DNA of 64,000 nucleotides from Candidatus Cloacimonadota bacterium. Its GTDB lineage: Bacteria; Cloacimonadota; Cloacimonadia; Cloacimonadales; Cloacimonadaceae. Below the pieces are notes generated by a model. The model searched no databases. It saw nothing but the letters and a program-made list of their open reading frames with translations, and had not been told where the DNA came from. Shown in pieces: positions 43,176-50,026 of this stretch. The DNA is taken from the NCBI GenBank assembly GCA_029781115.1, contig JAKOXG010000010.1, positions 4,582 to 68,581 on the forward strand. The letters are read 5' to 3'. The position numbers and the translations under genes were made by a program. Position 1 is the first letter of the stretch, and each line of letters opens with the position of its first letter.

Positions 43176-43826
43176 TTAGAAACTGTAAGATACGTTGATT
43201 AGGGGCGACCTTTCTTTGAGGCTCATATACACTTGTGAGCGTTTGTCTTTACTCGTGAAGCGCAGGGCATCAATGCCGCTGATCAGGTGGTTTACGATCA
43301 TTATGCCCTTGGTAGCCATGGCGTAATCCCTCATCTTGGAAGCTCTTATCCTGATCTTGCTGTAGGCGGCTCTTTGGGCAGTGGAATCCCAGCTCCAATA
43401 CATCTCTTCAGGATAGGCGTGCTTGTTTAGGTAGTCCTGTTGTTTGACGGGATCGTCAGGGTAGAGATTCATCGCTTCCTTGAGGATTTTGGTGTTGTAA
43501 CCATCAGCGGCAAAGCCTCCACTATTGTATCTGCTGAGGTTTCTAAAATAGGTTTCAGAGTAGGAACCGGGCTGAATATGAGCATATTTGAGAGCAAATT
43601 CATAAGCTTCTCGCTGAGCAAGCTTTTCTTCGCTGTTGATCATCATCATGCTTCCGATGATTGCAGCTTCACCTGCAAGCATAGCATAGCCATAGTTTCT
43701 GCCATGGATTACCTGGGGTAAACCAGGAATGGCGAGAGCACCCAAGACCTTCAAACCTCTGCTTTGGGCAAATAAACCGCAAGCTAAGAGGCTGATCAAA
43801 AGCAGGATAATAGTTTTGCGTATCAT
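43176..43826 (-). CDS. Membrane protein, paralog 3 of a three-member family (possibly DUF5683-like)
   Basis: Signal/lipobox-like N-terminus (LLACG), IPGLPQVIHG motif + TM helix, Tyr/Trp/Asp-rich middle, NHLISGIDAL near the end, terminal Phe. Confidence 0.6.
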   Translation of the reverse strand: MIRKTIILLLISLLACGLFAQSRGLKVLGALAIPGLPQVIHGRNYGYAMLAGEAAIIGSMMMINSEEKLAQREAYEFALKYAHIQPGSYSETYFRNLSRYNSGGFAADGYNTKILKEAMNLYPDDPVKQQDYLNKHAYPEEMYWSWDSTAQRAAYSKIRIRASKMRDYAMATKGIMIVNHLISGIDALRFTSKDKRSQVYMSLKERSPLINVSYSF

Positions 43827-44479
43827 TAAAACTCCAAGGTATAATGCAACATCATGGTTTTATCTTCATTGAAGCCAATATGCATGGCTGGTGGTTTTGA
43901 GCTGGGTCTTTTGCTCAAGAATAGAGCATCCACGGTGCTGATAGCCCGATTCAGCAAAAGAGCTCCCAAAGCGAGGGATTGGTATTGAGCGCTTCTCTGT
44001 TTCTTGCGTCTCAGATTGCGAAACTCCTTCTGGTGCTCTGCACTCTGCCAATGCCAAGCCTCTTCATCGGTATAGAGGTTGCGGGATAAATACTCAGCAT
44101 AACCATCCGGATCGTAGGTGTAGATCAGATAGTAGTTGCGTGCCCTCATCTCTTGGTAGTCGTTAAAATCATCACTGGATAGATACGATTGCATATCTTG
44201 GTATTGCCAGTCAGGTATGTCCAAACCGGTTCCAGCATAGATGTTGGCATAGCGTTTGGAGCGGTTTGTATAGTCTTTCACATCCTGTTTGTAGGAGCTC
44301 CAGGCAAATAAAGCAACCAGGTCTGCACCTAACATCACGCCGCCACGTGTGTGCTTGCCCAAAAGCAGCTCCGCACTTCCGGGAACCAGGGCAGACATCG
44401 CGGGATAGGTGATCCTGGGCAAAGCGGCGATAGGGAAGACCAAAGCCAGGAGACAGAGGGTTACAAAGAGTGGTTTCAT
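43826..44479 (-). CDS. Membrane protein, paralog 2 of the same family
   Basis: VPGSAELLLGKHTRGG + TM helix, W.WQS middle, NRAISTVDAL, terminal Phe. 1-nt overlap with the neighbour. Confidence 0.6.
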   Translation of the reverse strand: MKPLFVTLCLLALVFPIAALPRITYPAMSALVPGSAELLLGKHTRGGVMLGADLVALFAWSSYKQDVKDYTNRSKRYANIYAGTGLDIPDWQYQDMQSYLSSDDFNDYQEMRARNYYLIYTYDPDGYAEYLSRNLYTDEEAWHWQSAEHQKEFRNLRRKKQRSAQYQSLALGALLLNRAISTVDALFLSKRPSSKPPAMHIGFNEDKTMMLHYTLEF

Positions 44480-45487
44480 CTAAAAGTTCCAGACTAAGTT
44501 TACGGTAGGGTGCAGCTTGCCTTCTCTAACCGAGGTGTAGTATTTGAATTGGACTGGTGGTGCTTCTGTGAGGTAGGTTTTGTTTACCTTACTGGTGAGC
44601 AGTGTGGCGTGTATTGCTGAAGCGATATGGTTGAAAGCCAGGCCCAATGTGGCGATCCTGCCATTTTTGTAGGAGGCGTTGGCGTCTTTGCGCATCTGTA
44701 TATAATGCTGTCTGGTGGGAGATGCGATTGCTGAACCAGGAGCAATGTGTTGTGCTGAATTTGGGTCATTGATAAAGTCTGCAATGCGCTTGTTTGCTGT
44801 CCAGATGCTTGAATGTTCATCCTGAGTATTTGCCCACATCCAGGCATCCATAAAAGCTTCATTATCAAAGGCAAAGCTACCGTCTCGGGGATCGACGGCA
44901 AAGTTGTGATACCAGTCCGCCCAACCGAATACGTATTTATTGTATTTGCCGATGTCTTCATAGAAGTGCTGGGTATTGGTGCCATCCAGGCGGAAAAAGT
45001 CTTTATCGTAGATGTCGTTGGGGTAAACGTCTCGCAGCACTACCTCTGTCCGTGCTTGGAATGTCCTGTTGTAGCGAGGCCCGGTGTAGTCTATGCTGTA
45101 ATCGATGCCGTTTACGGTATAATTGAAGGTGGTGCTGATTGTCTCCTCAGTGGCATACTTCTCAAAATCTTCCGTGCGACTGTTTCCCTGCATATTGAAG
45201 TAGATAATGCCGCCTATAAGTCCTGCCTCGATGATGGGGAAGACCCAAGTGGCGACTGAGGATTTCTTGGCATAAAACTGTCCCGCTCCCGGCAGAACAG
45301 CTGAAAAGAGCATGGCCAAGCGCGCATCCTTCTTCTGGAAGTTGATCTTGATGATGTCGTCACCTTCGGATGTTTGCTCGCTGGTCTCTTTGGAGCCTGT
45401 GCCAAAGATCCAGTCATCATCACTCTTTTTAGCCAGAACGGGGCAGAGGAGCCCCAAGCAAAGTAGGATTATTATCGTCTTTTTCAT
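44480..45487 (-). CDS. Membrane protein, paralog 1 (longer middle region) of the same family
   Basis: LPGAGQFYAKKS + TM helix, NHIASAIHA, terminal WNF. ATG at 45487 with a GAGG RBS is preferred over the GTG at 45502. Confidence 0.6.
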   Translation of the reverse strand: MKKTIIILLCLGLLCPVLAKKSDDDWIFGTGSKETSEQTSEGDDIIKINFQKKDARLAMLFSAVLPGAGQFYAKKSSVATWVFPIIEAGLIGGIIYFNMQGNSRTEDFEKYATEETISTTFNYTVNGIDYSIDYTGPRYNRTFQARTEVVLRDVYPNDIYDKDFFRLDGTNTQHFYEDIGKYNKYVFGWADWYHNFAVDPRDGSFAFDNEAFMDAWMWANTQDEHSSIWTANKRIADFINDPNSAQHIAPGSAIASPTRQHYIQMRKDANASYKNGRIATLGLAFNHIASAIHATLLTSKVNKTYLTEAPPVQFKYYTSVREGKLHPTVNLVWNF

Positions 45488-45498
45488 AGCATATAACC

Positions 45499-48400
45499 TC
45501 ACTTAATTACGGCAAACTTGATGCGTGCGCTCTCATCCTTATTTGCCAAAGTTAGATAGTAGACCCCGTTGCCAAGCTTGTGGTCGATACTGAAGTCTCT
45601 CACCTGCGTGGCAGAGGCTTCGTAGCTGCGTTCCAGCACCAATTTGCCGGAGCTGTCGAATATCTTGATGGTGGTGGGATAGTTTCTCAGCATATCTGCT
45701 CTAACTCTGAGCGTGCTGCTCACCACGGGGTTTGGATATACGTAGATGCTCAGCTTTTTACCTGATGCTTGAGGGATGGCTTGCGTGCCCGTAAGTTCGC
45801 CGCATGAGCCATTTCTTTCTCCAGCCCAGAGTATGGGGTTTTCAGCATTGTTACTACAGTGATAGCTCAAGGCATCACCGCTCTGGTAAAACCAGTAGAA
45901 TTGCTGCTGTTGCGGCAAATAGTATAGATAGGGTGATTGCCTCTGGCCGGAAAGTCCCAAAGATAGCTCAGGATGATAGGTTGCATCCACACCGTAAGCC
46001 ATGTAGCCCATATCAGCAACAGGGATCTGCATAATGGGCAAAGAGTTTAGCTCCAAGGCGTAGACATGTTGCCGAGGAGCAAATTGTGTATCTGTGTTTG
46101 TGTAAGGAAAGCCTTGTCGCAAGGTGCCATCTGCAAGGGTGGCATATACCTTGTTTGCATTGCCCCAGAAGAGAATAGGAGCATCGTCATCGGTAGCCAT
46201 GATACCCAGTTGTGTGGGCAGGCTGGTTTCTATGTTTTTGAATATTCTGGTGAGATGTCCCTGAGAGATACTCCAGACATCACCGCCATTGGAGCACAGA
46301 TAGATGATGGATTCCAGGGTTTGAGCATCGGTAAAGGAGACCGGCTCATAATCACCAAAACTGTCTGTCAAAGTGTAGTTGGCCAAGACATCCATGTCTA
46401 AAGATAGTATAGATACCATGGAAGGCTGCAACACAACCAGCTTATCATGAGCAATGGCCATAGCTTTGGCATCCGGAATGGGAGCTATGGATATGATGCT
46501 GTCGTCCTGAATCTTCATCACATTTTGGCTTGTAGCCAAGTAGATGGCATCACCATGTGCAAGTGGCTTGAGTGTGCAAGGGCCTCCCAAGTCTATATCA
46601 GTGTAATCTAAAGTGTCGTTCCAAAACTCCACAATCCTCAGGCGATCTTCCAAGCAGAGGACGATTTCGTCATAGGGCTTATTGTTTTGCCTGCTTATGA
46701 TGGGCTCAAAAATGGGCTTGGAGCATTGCCAGGCAAAGTCGCCCATGAGGTTGAACCATGGATCTGACAGGGTGCTTAAAAGCCGGATGGCGTCGTTGGT
46801 TATCACCGGCACCATGTCCTGTCCAAAGCAGGTTTCCATCATGGGGGCTATGGTGGCATCAGGATTGATGTCTATGGTGTAGCTGTTTTCAAAGAAGCCG
46901 GCTGCCAGCTCAAAGCTCATCACTGGATTGGGATGACTGATATCCTTGAGCCAATACAAAGAAGGGACTCCACGGGAGTCGGTGAGAGCAGGTTTGGTGT
47001 GAGGGCCAAGTTCAGGCCTCCAAGGCGTTTGAGACCAGGATACAAATCCACCATTCCCGTCCAAGCGGGGCTTGCTCTTGTGGAAATATTCATAGGGAGT
47101 GCCCGTCCACCACCAAGACCATTCATTGCCGATATCATCCAAGCCGTCAGCTTCAATGACCTTCACGCCGCGTTTGCTGCGGATGGTGTTGACTGTATTG
47201 TTGTCAAAGTTGCTCACCCAGGTTCCATCCGAGTAGACCACACCCTGATTGTAGATGATGTCCTCATTGATATGCCAGGCGAGGATGCCGCCTCCCTCAG
47301 AATCACCGTTGGGCTTCAGGAAGGAAGGAAGTAGATAGTCATATTCATAGGAAGGGGAATTGTCTGGGTCATCAATGGGGCTGGGGTGGAGGATTACGCG
47401 CCCATCCAAAGCACTATAGACAGCCGTAGCTCCATCACCGTCAGGATCCACGCTGCGATTTTCCAGCAGGATATATTCATGTTCAGAGAGGTTCAGCTTG
47501 TAAATGGTAGGCTCAAAGTTGCCAGGAGGCTGCTTGTAGCTTGAGGCCGCCAAACGATGCTGCAATCCCAATTGCTCAATATTGATATCCTGCATCAGTC
47601 CCACGGCACGGAACTGATCCTCAAACAGCAGGGCACGTGAAAAAGCACCCGGCAAAGCAGGCAAGATCCCCTCTACATACACGTAGGAGCCATCATCCAA
47701 CATATCCACCAGGATGCCGGCTCCGCCGCTATCCATGATGTCAAATACGCCAACCATAGGCTGGAAGTTTCTGGTGTTGTAGAGGTCTACCAAGCCCAAG
47801 GAATGGCCAAATTCATGCACCATGACAGAGTTTATCGCACCATAGCCACTGTGGAAGGTTTCTCCTTCTTTGGTGCTGGTGGAGAAATCTTGGCTGATGG
47901 TGGCAGGGACGTTGCAGGCATGACAGATGAAGTGTGTGCCATTATCGACAGGCACGGCCTTGGATTCATTTACGTGGATGAAGAAGGAGGGGATGTCGCT
48001 GGGAGTGTCGCCGCTGGTATCATGTTGCCAATCTGAACCCGCATGAATGATCATGTAGTGATCGTAGGATGCAAAGTCAATCTCGGGGCATTGGGTATCC
48101 GCAAGGCTAAAGCTTTGATAGAAATACTCCTCCATGAGCGAGACAAACCGATCACCACTGGCATTGGGGGGATTGTAGTAGCCCATAGTGTTGGGAAGGG
48201 TGATAAAGCTGCCATCCTTTGGATATACATCATATTCCAGATCATATAGCCCAGCAGAGACTGCCAGGTAATAATGGCGAACCGCCTCCAGGTTGGCTTC
48301 AAAAAACTCCCTGTCGTGCGGAGGTGCACCGATGGAATAGATATAGTTGGGATCAGGCTCCAACTGAAACTGCCCATTGCCGGTGGTATTGGGATCATCC

Positions 48401-48672
48401 ACCACTTCCTCTTGAAACTGTACCAAGATCACCAGCAAGCGGTTGTAATTAGACGATTTCGCATCTGATCTGCTCAGCGGCTTGGATATCAGTTGCTTGG
48501 TATGCGGATGCCGTTTTGGCTTGGAGAAAGCTTCAGCTCTCAGCAAGACCAGCTTCTGGCTCCCAAACGCAGAAAGCGGCACCAAGCCTATGCATAAGAT
48601 AAGCAGAATGATGCCGTATATAAAGCTCCCCGGAGCGCAAAGCAAGCTCCGGAGGCTGAAATGGTTTCTCAT
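45499..48672 (-). CDS. Peptidase M6 (immune inhibitor A-like) zinc metalloprotease with T9SS C-terminal sorting domain
   Basis: Signal anchor, VMVHEFGHSLGLVDLY zinc site typical of M6, and CTD VYPNPVVSSTLRV...GVYYLTLANKDESARIKFAVIK. Confidence 0.8.
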   Translation of the reverse strand: MRNHFSLRSLLCAPGSFIYGIILLILCIGLVPLSAFGSQKLVLLRAEAFSKPKRHPHTKQLISKPLSRSDAKSSNYNRLLVILVQFQEEVVDDPNTTGNGQFQLEPDPNYIYSIGAPPHDREFFEANLEAVRHYYLAVSAGLYDLEYDVYPKDGSFITLPNTMGYYNPPNASGDRFVSLMEEYFYQSFSLADTQCPEIDFASYDHYMIIHAGSDWQHDTSGDTPSDIPSFFIHVNESKAVPVDNGTHFICHACNVPATISQDFSTSTKEGETFHSGYGAINSVMVHEFGHSLGLVDLYNTRNFQPMVGVFDIMDSGGAGILVDMLDDGSYVYVEGILPALPGAFSRALLFEDQFRAVGLMQDINIEQLGLQHRLAASSYKQPPGNFEPTIYKLNLSEHEYILLENRSVDPDGDGATAVYSALDGRVILHPSPIDDPDNSPSYEYDYLLPSFLKPNGDSEGGGILAWHINEDIIYNQGVVYSDGTWVSNFDNNTVNTIRSKRGVKVIEADGLDDIGNEWSWWWTGTPYEYFHKSKPRLDGNGGFVSWSQTPWRPELGPHTKPALTDSRGVPSLYWLKDISHPNPVMSFELAAGFFENSYTIDINPDATIAPMMETCFGQDMVPVITNDAIRLLSTLSDPWFNLMGDFAWQCSKPIFEPIISRQNNKPYDEIVLCLEDRLRIVEFWNDTLDYTDIDLGGPCTLKPLAHGDAIYLATSQNVMKIQDDSIISIAPIPDAKAMAIAHDKLVVLQPSMVSILSLDMDVLANYTLTDSFGDYEPVSFTDAQTLESIIYLCSNGGDVWSISQGHLTRIFKNIETSLPTQLGIMATDDDAPILFWGNANKVYATLADGTLRQGFPYTNTDTQFAPRQHVYALELNSLPIMQIPVADMGYMAYGVDATYHPELSLGLSGQRQSPYLYYLPQQQQFYWFYQSGDALSYHCSNNAENPILWAGERNGSCGELTGTQAIPQASGKKLSIYVYPNPVVSSTLRVRADMLRNYPTTIKIFDSSGKLVLERSYEASATQVRDFSIDHKLGNGVYYLTLANKDESARIKFAVIK

Positions 48673-48695
48673 CAGCTTAAAGGCCTACTGTGTGA

Positions 48696-49724
48696 TTAGA
48701 AATCGAAGCCTACTGAGAAGATTTTGTTATAGTCTGCGAGGTCTCCCGCTACAATCATGCCAAAATCTGCAGTGAGGCGATAGCGATTGTCAAACTTGTA
48801 TTCAATACCCACGCCAAAGCTGGGGCCTACTATTTCGCCGGCATGATCTGCAAAGTATCCGCCGCGAAGGGAAAGAAGCTGCAGGTAAGTGTATTCAATA
48901 CCAGCGCCAAAGATGGTTTCATCTATCGGATCCCAGCCGGAAATGAAGCGTGCCAGGAGAGCATCTTCATTGGCGAGGATTTTGCTTGCTTCGACGCTTA
49001 AGGTGAGCTTGCTGATGGGATCGTCAAGAGCGCGGTAAGCTGCTCCCAGTCTAACTGTCATGGGTGTAGGGCCGGATTGTTCTTCGTCAACGTGAGTTAC
49101 ATCCGGGCCAATATTTTGAATGGTTAGGCCAAAGTCCAAACCATCAGTAAAGATGTCCCGAGCTTTTGCACCCAAGTCAAAAGCAAAAGCCAATGCACTA
49201 CCGGCATCTTCTGTGTTACCTTGACCAGGTCCCAGATATTCGTAGGCCAGCTTGAAATTGGCTCCCACGCCCAGCTTTTGGGCTATCGCTTCATAGCTGT
49301 AGCCCACGGTCGTTGCAAAACCGAAGCTATGGAAGTCTCCCAAATAGTTGCCGGCTTCGTCAGTATTTGGCTGTGTTCCATAATCCAGCAAGGTGAGATG
49401 CACGTTGATATTGCCAATATCCTGGAAATACTGGTTCCAACCCAAGTATTCATAAAACAGGTCGTCGATATTTGTTCCTTGCAGCCAAGGTACGTGAGTT
49501 CCAGCCAACTGCGTTTTACGGTTGAATGCAGTGGCTCCAGGGTTCCACCAAGGGGCGTAAGCGTCATCAGCAACTGCTGTGTAAGCTCTCCCCATTGCAT
49601 TTGCACGCGCTCCGGGCTCAATTGTGAGAAAGAGCAGTGTACCTTGAGACATTCCTGCCATCGTGGCAGGAATTGCCAGCAGCATGGCCAAAGCCATGAG
49701 CACGATCGTGTTTCGTTTAAACAT
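48696..49724 (-). CDS. PorV/PorQ-family T9SS-associated outer-membrane beta-barrel
   Basis: Family signature FLTIEPGARANAMGRAYTAVADDAYAPWWNPGATAF, beta-rich, C-terminal VGFDF. ATG at 49724 follows a GGAGA RBS; the ORF-track start is 49742. Confidence 0.7.
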   Translation of the reverse strand: MFKRNTIVLMALAMLLAIPATMAGMSQGTLLFLTIEPGARANAMGRAYTAVADDAYAPWWNPGATAFNRKTQLAGTHVPWLQGTNIDDLFYEYLGWNQYFQDIGNINVHLTLLDYGTQPNTDEAGNYLGDFHSFGFATTVGYSYEAIAQKLGVGANFKLAYEYLGPGQGNTEDAGSALAFAFDLGAKARDIFTDGLDFGLTIQNIGPDVTHVDEEQSGPTPMTVRLGAAYRALDDPISKLTLSVEASKILANEDALLARFISGWDPIDETIFGAGIEYTYLQLLSLRGGYFADHAGEIVGPSFGVGIEYKFDNRYRLTADFGMIVAGDLADYNKIFSVGFDF

Positions 49725-49898
49725 TCGTTCTCCTATATTCATATTGTTCAGCCCGGCATACTAAACAAACCGGATAGTGGTTAAGATTATTTGTGCAAAG
49801 TGAAAGGAATGAAAACACCTTTCTATCATTGCGTAAGTCTCTCATTGTCGTATAGCTGCCTGAATGCACAATTACGGGACGTCTCTCCTTTTTTTTGT

Positions 49899-49998: not shown

Positions 49999-50026
49999 AA
50001 TATATGGAATGCAGCTTAATTGTCAA
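49999..50026 (-). promoter_or_regulatory. Sigma70-like promoter of tRNA-Leu(CAA)
   Basis: Minus strand TTGACA-N16-TATATT, ending 13 nt before the mature 5' end. Confidence 0.55.

Follow-up and report, generated by a model that had tools for sequence, protein, structure and literature searches.

A porV-linked cassette of an M6-type metalloprotease and DUF5683-like proteins in Cloacimonadota, a probable accessory of the type IX secretion system

How a type IX secretion system (T9SS) works has been learnt almost wholly from Porphyromonas and Flavobacterium. In Porphyromonas gingivalis, PorU and PorZ retain their C-terminal domains (CTDs), which bind PorV and PorQ. Another described arrangement is that of the SprF/PorP-like cognate carriers, whose genes adjoin those of type-B CTD cargo (Gorasia et al. 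2022, PMC9143113). In addition, parts of the gene set considered here are already catalogued in the curated models of the National Center for Biotechnology Information (NCBI), such as NF052323, a ‘T9SS-dependent M6-like inactivated metalloprotease’. The present analysis concerns a stretch of 64,000 nucleotides (nt), hereafter the window, from Candidatus Cloacimonadota bacterium (GenBank assembly GCA_029781115.1, contig JAKOXG010000010.1, positions 4,582 to 68,581 of the forward strand), in which five minus-strand genes at window positions 43176-49742 encode a PorV-family barrel, an M6-type metalloprotease with a T9SS CTD and three small DUF5683-like proteins, A, B and C. Judged from sequence, this locus is the Cloacimonadota variant of a widespread porV-linked module, and the cassette is probably an undescribed T9SS accessory rather than a private shuttle for a single cargo.

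The five genes form the tight, operon-like cluster that the original prediction had described, and all of the open reading frames (ORFs) were recovered in an ORF check; the identities proposed for them, a PorV/PorQ-family barrel, a T9SS-tailed M6 protease and three small proteins, are borne out by family models and homology. The first gene (48696..49742, minus strand, like all that follow) encodes a predicted outer-membrane barrel of 348 amino acids with a predicted signal peptide. The second (45499..48672) encodes an M6-type zinc metalloprotease of 1057 amino acids, in which a signal peptide, a catalytic domain, a region of ~390 amino acids and a type-A CTD follow one another. These are succeeded by the genes of protein A (44480..45502; 340 amino acids from GTG), protein B (43826..44479; 217 amino acids) and protein C (43176..43826; 216 amino acids), a paralog of B. 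The barrel and protease genes are separated by a 23-nt gap, as read from the sequence. Protein A probably starts at the ATG at 45487 (335 amino acids), as in its orthologues and in the database gene call, which leaves 11 nt behind the protease gene, or a 4-nt overlap if the upstream GTG is used; A and B abut with no gap (TAGATG), and B and C overlap by 1 nt (TAATG).

In keeping with the family assignment first made for it, the barrel scores 211.7 bits with NF033709, the model of the PorV/PorQ family (cut-off 90), over model positions 4-326 of 326, and 53.6 bits with PF19572 (cut-off 27). It carries the signature EPGARANAMGRAYTAVADDAYAPWWNPGATAF noted earlier at residues 42-73. It matches F. 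johnsoniae PorV (6H3I_F) with E = 3e-7. Its scores for the equivalog models of PorQ (85 bits, cut-off 220) and ‘PorV2’ (31 bits, cut-off 325) are both below threshold, and its score for the PorV equivalog model NF033710 is the top one among the nine PorV-family paralogs of the genome, the runner-up reaching 84.9 bits. The barrel is also the best PorV-family match in all six genomes examined. In a PorV-family tree of 33 rows, built by a ‘quick’ method and including seven other paralogs of the window genome, the cassette barrels of Cloacimonadota, those of other lineages with a live M6 site, and those of Ignavibacterium album and its kin are united in one clade (Shimodaira-Hasegawa-like approximate likelihood ratio test, SH-aLRT, 96). 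This clade contains porU-adjacent PorV genes of other lineages, including an I. album PorV that passes NF033710, and all seven other paralogs fall outside it. Forcing all Cloacimonadota barrels into a single clade costs 40 log-likelihood units and is rejected by the approximately unbiased (AU) test (p-AU 0.001), the tested group having been named after the tree was seen. Because of the shared clade with I. album PorV, the top paralog score and the AU test against a within-phylum origin, the barrel is read as the PorV ortholog of this lineage, that is, as the predicted general carrier for type-A CTD cargo, and the earlier notion of an extra PorV dedicated to one cargo is not upheld.

Within the phylum, the cassette is conserved. 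In 39-41 of 41 relatives, which represent 13 families of Cloacimonadales, the M6 gene, the gene for A and the B-C tandem were located close to one another. ORF maps of more than 20 loci from these 13 families, made with a simple longest-ORF picker, show barrel, M6, A, B and C in this order wherever the contig extends far enough. The genes that flank the five-gene cassette differ between loci, and the shared gene order, on which the original prediction was staked, goes beyond what chance would give. A profile of the B/C family matches 192 of 201 genomes of the phylum. Two families of the same class that lie outside the order (f15 and f16) possess a three-gene core, composed of the barrel, the M6 protease and one DUF5683-like gene. 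In another family of this class, f14, which is represented by closed genomes of 1.6 Mb (G041-G043, G045, G048 and G081), the small protein was found in 0/6 genomes, M6 in 0/1 and CTD proteins in 0/3, which suggests that the cassette occurs where T9SS cargo occurs; the whole T9SS may have been lost in this family. Taken over all lineages, the linkage of porV, M6 and DUF5683-like genes persists down to ~30 % sequence identity and through full turnover of the flanking genes.

Beyond the phylum, metagenomes were scanned with aligned sequences of M6 and of M6b, the second M6 paralog of Cloacimonadota. This gave 80 loci, the ORFs of which were mapped by phmmer and hmmsearch, and several arrangements emerged in addition to loci of the Cloacimonadota type. 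Two loci (L052 and L054) hold porU, porV, a live M6 gene (HEFGHQLGLVD) and DUF5683-like genes of both the A and the B/C type, and a partial contig (L055) holds porU, porV and a live M6 gene. Six more (L061, L062, L071, L084, L090 and L094) have porU, porV, an M6-like gene without HExxH, a gene for a ~1040-amino-acid protein and an A-type gene, and three (L066, L073 and L074) have the same arrangement with no porU on the contig. Many generic M6 genes (L098-L123) are unrelated and are without such neighbours. Locus L062 is I. album itself (100 % identity to a UniRef entry of the species). Its PorV reaches 265 bits with NF033710 (cut-off 250) and its M6-like protein 1172 bits with NF052323 (cut-off 600); the gene after the latter encodes a Peptidase_MA_2 plus PD40 protein and is followed by a DUF5683-like gene. 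Compared with this I. album type, the Cloacimonadota variant has an intact protease site, three DUF5683-like genes, and both porU and an Omp85 fusion outside the locus. The fusion in question (C10:184622-187642 of the window genome, its gene alone there) is a protein of 1006 amino acids, a zincin (HELTH; Peptidase_MA_2) joined to a PD40 propeller and an Omp85 barrel, with PF13485, PF07676 and PF01103 all above their cut-offs, and its N-terminal architecture of Peptidase_MA_2 plus PD40 is common to it and the I. album module protein. The fusion is a member of the WD40-Omp85 class (Heinz and Lithgow 2014, PMC4104836). In the lineages that have porU, porV and a live M6 gene (L052:4847-7999, L053, L054 and L055), the barrel of PorV occupies the C-terminal end of a larger protein (860-1050 amino acids), behind a long unassigned N-terminal extension.

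The protease had been described as a 1057-amino-acid enzyme resembling immune inhibitor A and equipped with a T9SS CTD, and the components of that description were all found. The zinc-binding catalytic motif HEFGHSLGLVD (47785..47817, residues 286-296) is intact, PF05547 is matched at 24.1-26.4 bits (cut-off 22), and the sorting domain (45511..45741, residues 978-1054) is recognized by both TIGR04183 (34.2 bits, cut-off 23) and PF18962 (31.9 bits, cut-off 27). Together with the hydrophobic N-terminus, this tail gives the protein both hallmarks of type-A T9SS cargo. As the score for TIGR03296 is far under its cut-off (47.4 vs 110.8 bits), the protease is counted as a distant member of peptidase family M6. 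It is also below the cut-off of NF052323 (229.1 vs 600 bits). A Pfam search of the middle region of ~390 amino acids gave no match, even at E = 10, and a PDB sequence search with the protease did not find solved relatives.

The site is also conserved. The pattern HEFGHS[LM]G.[VPIA]DLY is present in all 22 cassette orthologues of the protease, and two orthologues from outside the order have HEFGHGLGFVD and HEFGHSLGFLD. In Cloacimonadota the zinc site of this protease is complete and under purifying selection. In an M6 tree of 45 rows, computed by the ‘quick’ method from the first 640 residues, the M6-like proteins of T9SS modules split from the generic M6 proteases (SH-aLRT 99), and the porV-linked ones constitute one group (SH-aLRT 90) in which NF052323 members are included. 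The window protease joins the live porV-linked forms (SH-aLRT 97), the forms without HExxH are a separate clade (SH-aLRT 99), and M6b has a clade of its own (SH-aLRT 100). Because the generic outgroup is active, loss of the HExxH site is most simply read as derived.

The three small proteins had been said to be clearly related to one another, and this is now supported at two levels. B and C find each other by BLASTP with E = 1e-9 and A finds C with E = 0.008, and profile alignment of the A family with the B/C family (hhalign) gives a probability of 98.4 % and E = 9e-15 over 191 columns, which take in the PG motif, the two long helices and the segment N-[HR]-x-x-S-x-x-[DH]-A. Protein A reaches PF18935 (DUF5683) with 32.1 bits (cut-off 26.7), in its N-terminal part only (model positions 2-58 of 151). 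B and C match neither PF18935 nor another family directly, and 2 of 19 members of the B/C family do match PF18935. Of the shared motifs first listed, the PG motif (LPGAGQFYAKKS in A, VPGSAELLLGKH in B and IPGLPQVIHGRN in C), the W-x-W (WMW, WHW and WSW, respectively) and the terminal Phe are present in all three proteins; the second-helix segment, listed as N-[HR]-x-I-S, reads NRAISTVDA in B, NHLISGIDA in C and NHIASAIHA in A, so that protein A has Ala in place of Ile and the pattern as first worded does not extend to it. The predicted helical hairpin has a conserved polar cluster, to which helix 1 contributes an acidic residue and helix 2 the segment N-[HR]-x-x-S-x-x-[DH]-A.

AlphaFold2 models of A and B (mean predicted local distance difference test scores, pLDDT, of 77.6 and 81.8) have a common plan: a signal peptide and two short helices that bear the PG motif come first, then two long helices with a head domain between them, and finally a C-terminal strand pair that closes with Phe. 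The head domain of A comprises ~140 amino acids with two hairpins (the modelled protein carries a PGAGQ motif), and that of B is smaller and all-helical. Foldseek searches with both models against the PDB gave a best E of 0.9 and no fold match. A likeness of protein A to Wzz-type co-polymerases, with two helices around a head, was considered and dropped as an impression, the Wzz entry standing at E = 8. Signal-peptidase-I signal peptides are predicted in all orthologues of the A, B and C families, and nearly all orthologues finish in an alternating hydrophobic pattern closed by F, Y or W, which looks like an outer-membrane beta-signal. A lipoprotein anchor for C, suggested by L-L-A-C in its signal peptide, was rejected, as the Cys is not conserved in orthologues.

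The profile of the B/C family gathers 1780 cluster representatives at E <= 0.001. Homologues of protein A number 343, and all of those that bear an organism name are Cloacimonadota; a scan of genome contigs with protein A gave only two close Cloacimonadota relatives. A, B and C are homologous to one another and are taken to be Sec-exported members of the wider DUF5683 family. Since lineages with a live M6 protease hold both types, the split between A and B/C is older than the phylum, and B and C stem from a duplication within Cloacimonadales. The small proteins belong to an uncharacterised family, as supposed at the outset. Further DUF5683-like genes of the window genome are located away from T9SS genes, at C10:49139-49720 and C4:112505-112855. 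The former encodes a protein of 193 amino acids with an APGWGQ motif and a GLEIEF end, and beside it are genes for a small lipoprotein and a UvrD-like helicase. A proteome comparison of outer-membrane vesicles (PMC13744359) includes PG0140, the DUF5683 protein of P. gingivalis, with its location given as unknown.

What, then, might the cassette do? The M6 and DUF5683-like set is kept with porV irrespective of whether the protease site is live or dead, and this favours a tie to PorV, either physical or through successive functional steps, over a role in bulk proteolysis. The interpretation favoured here, with little more than even confidence, is that the M6 protease and the DUF5683-like proteins are partners of PorV at the cell surface or in the envelope. 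The protease would be exported via the SprA translocon, carried on PorV by its CTD, and would most likely stay PorV-bound at the cell surface, as does PorU in Porphyromonas; that it rides on PorV is proposed by analogy with the CTD retention of PorU and PorZ. A surface-held M6 enzyme would act on T9SS cargo or on spent CTDs and so assist in processing cargo or in turning over PorV. As for the DUF5683-like proteins, they would probably be outer-membrane-associated partners of the PorV assembly or of the zincin-PD40-Omp85 barrel, and may dock by their C-terminal strand on a barrel, for instance that of PorV or of the Omp85 fusion. As a conserved, PorV-linked gene set, the cassette does look like the functional secretion or anchoring module that had been suggested.

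Several observations weigh against this interpretation. The barrel stays under the cut-off of the PorV equivalog model NF033710 (112.3 vs 250 bits). In this phylum porU is not adjacent to the cassette, so that it is other lineages that connect the cassette with attachment. In the small proteins, the long helices, which are the putative membrane helices, show only weak hydrophobicity (Kyte-Doolittle 1.1-1.7 over 19 residues), and the C-terminal hairpins of A and B are modelled with low confidence. Moreover, Cloacimonadota are thought to live on amino acids, and a conserved secreted protease could be nutritional.

This last point is the heart of the main rival, according to which the protease is ordinary cargo, a major nutritional surface or secreted enzyme of amino-acid-fermenting Cloacimonadota. 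Co-transcription with porV would then serve to make the carrier together with an abundant cargo, and the DUF5683-like genes would encode envelope proteins of a general kind that have nothing to do with secretion. It is consistent with the intact catalytic site in 22 of 22 orthologues, with a genome rich in T9SS-tailed proteases, S8 and C25-like peptidases being among the CTD proteins beside its PorV-family genes, and with the DUF5683-like genes that lie apart from T9SS genes. However, orthologous M6-like proteins without HExxH keep their place beside porV and a DUF5683-like gene in other lineages, which suggests that the conserved role of the family is not bulk proteolysis, and the linkage has outlasted both deep sequence divergence and flank turnover. 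The rival accounts for the live site but not for the conserved position of the dead orthologues, and is regarded as unlikely.

Rather improbable is the explanation that the barrel represents a further PorV paralog, specific to one cargo, which carries or anchors the neighbouring M6 protease only, much as PorP/SprF-like proteins serve the type-B cargo encoded next to them. Cargo-adjacent barrels are a real theme in this genome: of its nine PorV-family genes, six are directly beside a CTD gene (rough binomial p ~2.5e-4), and the large CTD proteins concerned include S8 and C25-like peptidases. Cognate carriers of type-B cargo have been documented as well (PMC9143113). The window barrel itself, however, is the most PorV-like of the nine, shares its clade with canonical porU-adjacent PorV genes and does not conform to a within-phylum origin in the AU test, the group for which was chosen with the tree in view; a private role would also leave ~100 type-A cargo proteins without another good PorV candidate. 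Leaving the true PorV aside, barrels of the PorV family next to cargo seem to characterise the phylum. The count of PorV-family genes, to which the original prediction had pointed, is nine in this genome (C8:53277, C13:97455, C13:81181, C1:47471, C22:116011, C13:10256, C3:81108, C4:22858 and C1:5965) and 8-12 in other Cloacimonadota.

The idea that M6 replaces PorU as CTD signal peptidase or sortase and that the degenerate M6b beside a PorQ-like barrel replaces PorZ, for which the adjacency of a CTD protease gene to porV mirrors porU-porV and the M6b, PorQ-like barrel and S8 locus mirrors PorZ-PorQ, is highly improbable in the face of a bona fide PorU in the genome (NF033707, 597 bits, cut-off 420), of porU sharing an operon with an M6-like gene in other lineages and of a PorZ-like candidate beside sprA that scores below its cut-off (81-111 vs 260 bits). 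In view of the true PorU, M6 was rejected as its substitute, and M6b is an unlikely substitute for PorZ.

The wider inventory of the window genome (G000; 2.25 Mb, 99 % complete) gives the PorV-partner interpretation its setting. SprA is present, PorU stands alone on contig C7, and a PorU-like paralog is found in addition. Directly downstream of sprA, a CTD protein of 844 amino acids (C14:80507-83041) matches the C-terminal part of the PorZ model with 81 bits, and its counterparts in relatives with up to 111 bits, against the cut-off of 260, making it a candidate divergent PorZ. An iterated in-house hidden Markov model detects a type-A-like CTD in ~109 of ~1661 ORFs of at least 90 amino acids (6.6 %), a very high load for a genome of this size.

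Two other loci of this genome with PorV-family genes are of note. A second conserved locus, directly after efp (C1:44375-52579), encodes M6b (1031 amino acids, HQFGH), a PorQ-like barrel (305 amino acids, 120 bits with the PorQ model) and a subtilisin-like S8 protease of 1391 amino acids with a T9SS tail. Across genomes, M6b has HQFGH, or HEFGH with GLPT replacing the third zinc ligand, or no motif, and the arrangement M6b, PorQ-like, S8 recurs in each of the eight further genomes of the order that were inspected; the locus is also represented by L036-L043, L078, L092 and L093. The other locus (C4:18031-28896) contains genes of a PorU-like paralog (1672 amino acids), a PorV2-like barrel (336 amino acids), a lipoprotein-like protein (257 amino acids) and a gingipain/C25-like CTD protein (1264 amino acids), a combination that echoes the set of NF052324 (PorU-related) and NF052325 (PorV2) with all scores under the cut-offs. 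No gene of the window genome reaches the cut-offs of the models NF052323-NF052325.

Upstream of the cassette, a promoter-like site on the minus strand (49999..50026; TTGACA, 16 nt, TATATT) agrees with the consensus at 11 of 12 positions and is a candidate operon promoter by pattern only; it lies ~260 nt upstream of the barrel gene, and such sites are no commoner in the region than in shuffled sequence. Horizontal transfer of the cluster was also considered, and nothing points to it, as its guanine-cytosine (GC) content of 0.48-0.50 equals that of the remaining window.

The literature searched yielded nothing on the function of DUF5683, on ‘PorV2’, on M6 proteases with T9SS, on NF052323 or on the module as a whole, in line with the original statement that the cassette could not be matched to a described system; the single hit for ‘PorV2’, in PMC10994853, corresponded to no protein of this name in the passages seen. 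That these genes accompany porV, and frequently porU as well, in Cloacimonadota, Ignavibacteriota and other uncultured lineages points to T9SS parts or obligatory partners which may be absent from, or hidden in, the model organisms, and it provides a first consistent genomic context for the large uncharacterised DUF5683 family. The Cloacimonadota version is informative in three respects: its M6 partner with a live site suggests that the dead forms elsewhere are derived, its small DUF5683-like partner can be multiplied, and its genome also has a parallel locus that combines a degenerate M6 with a PorQ-like barrel and an S8 protease. A bolder proposal, possible but doubtful, is that PorV, the M6 or M6-like CTD protein, the DUF5683-like proteins and the zincin-PD40-Omp85 protein make up an ancestral, unrecognised outer-membrane sub-complex of the T9SS in phyla of the Fibrobacteres-Chlorobi-Bacteroidetes (FCB) group outside the studied Bacteroidota, which would act at the PorV step, for instance in clearing cleaved CTDs from PorV or maturing cargo, and of which Cloacimonadota would preserve the state with a catalytically active M6. 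Cloacimonadota are abundant in anaerobic digesters. With ~6 % of the ORFs of the window genome being T9SS-tailed, the display and processing of surface proteases by these bacteria is relevant to protein breakdown there.

Set beside the known systems, the locus resembles each of them in part. With immune inhibitor A (InhA) and other M6 enzymes, the protease has in common the HEXXHXXGXXD zinc site and a match to PF05547, but it is very distant from them, bears a T9SS tail and a ~390-amino-acid uncharacterised region, and is separated from the clade of generic M6 proteases. The likeness to the SprF/PorP-like carriers consists in a carrier gene beside a cargo gene, whereas the barrels here are of the PorV/PorQ family, the CTDs are of type A and the window barrel appears to be a general PorV. 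The porU-porV pair, and the PorU-PorV-PorQ-PorZ attachment complex of P. gingivalis and F. johnsoniae, likewise place a PorV gene beside that of a large CTD-bearing protease; a homologous module is joined to porU in other lineages, and the window genome pairs a PorQ-like barrel with the degenerate M6b. The neighbour of the window barrel, however, is an M6 zinc protease and not the C25-type cysteine peptidase PorU, which is encoded elsewhere, and DUF5683-like genes are not among the known parts of the attachment complex. The features shared with DUF5683 (PF18935) are the signal peptide, the PG-x-G-Q/E motif and the following helix, while A, B and C carry head domains inserted between two helices. 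NF052323, with I. album L062 taken as its type, is built like the window protease, in which an M6-like domain is followed by an unassigned region and this by a type-A CTD, and falls in the same clade apart from generic M6. It is defined as inactivated, whereas the window protease scores 229 bits against the cut-off of 600 and has its HExxH...D site intact, and yet both are encoded directly after porV and before a DUF5683-like gene.

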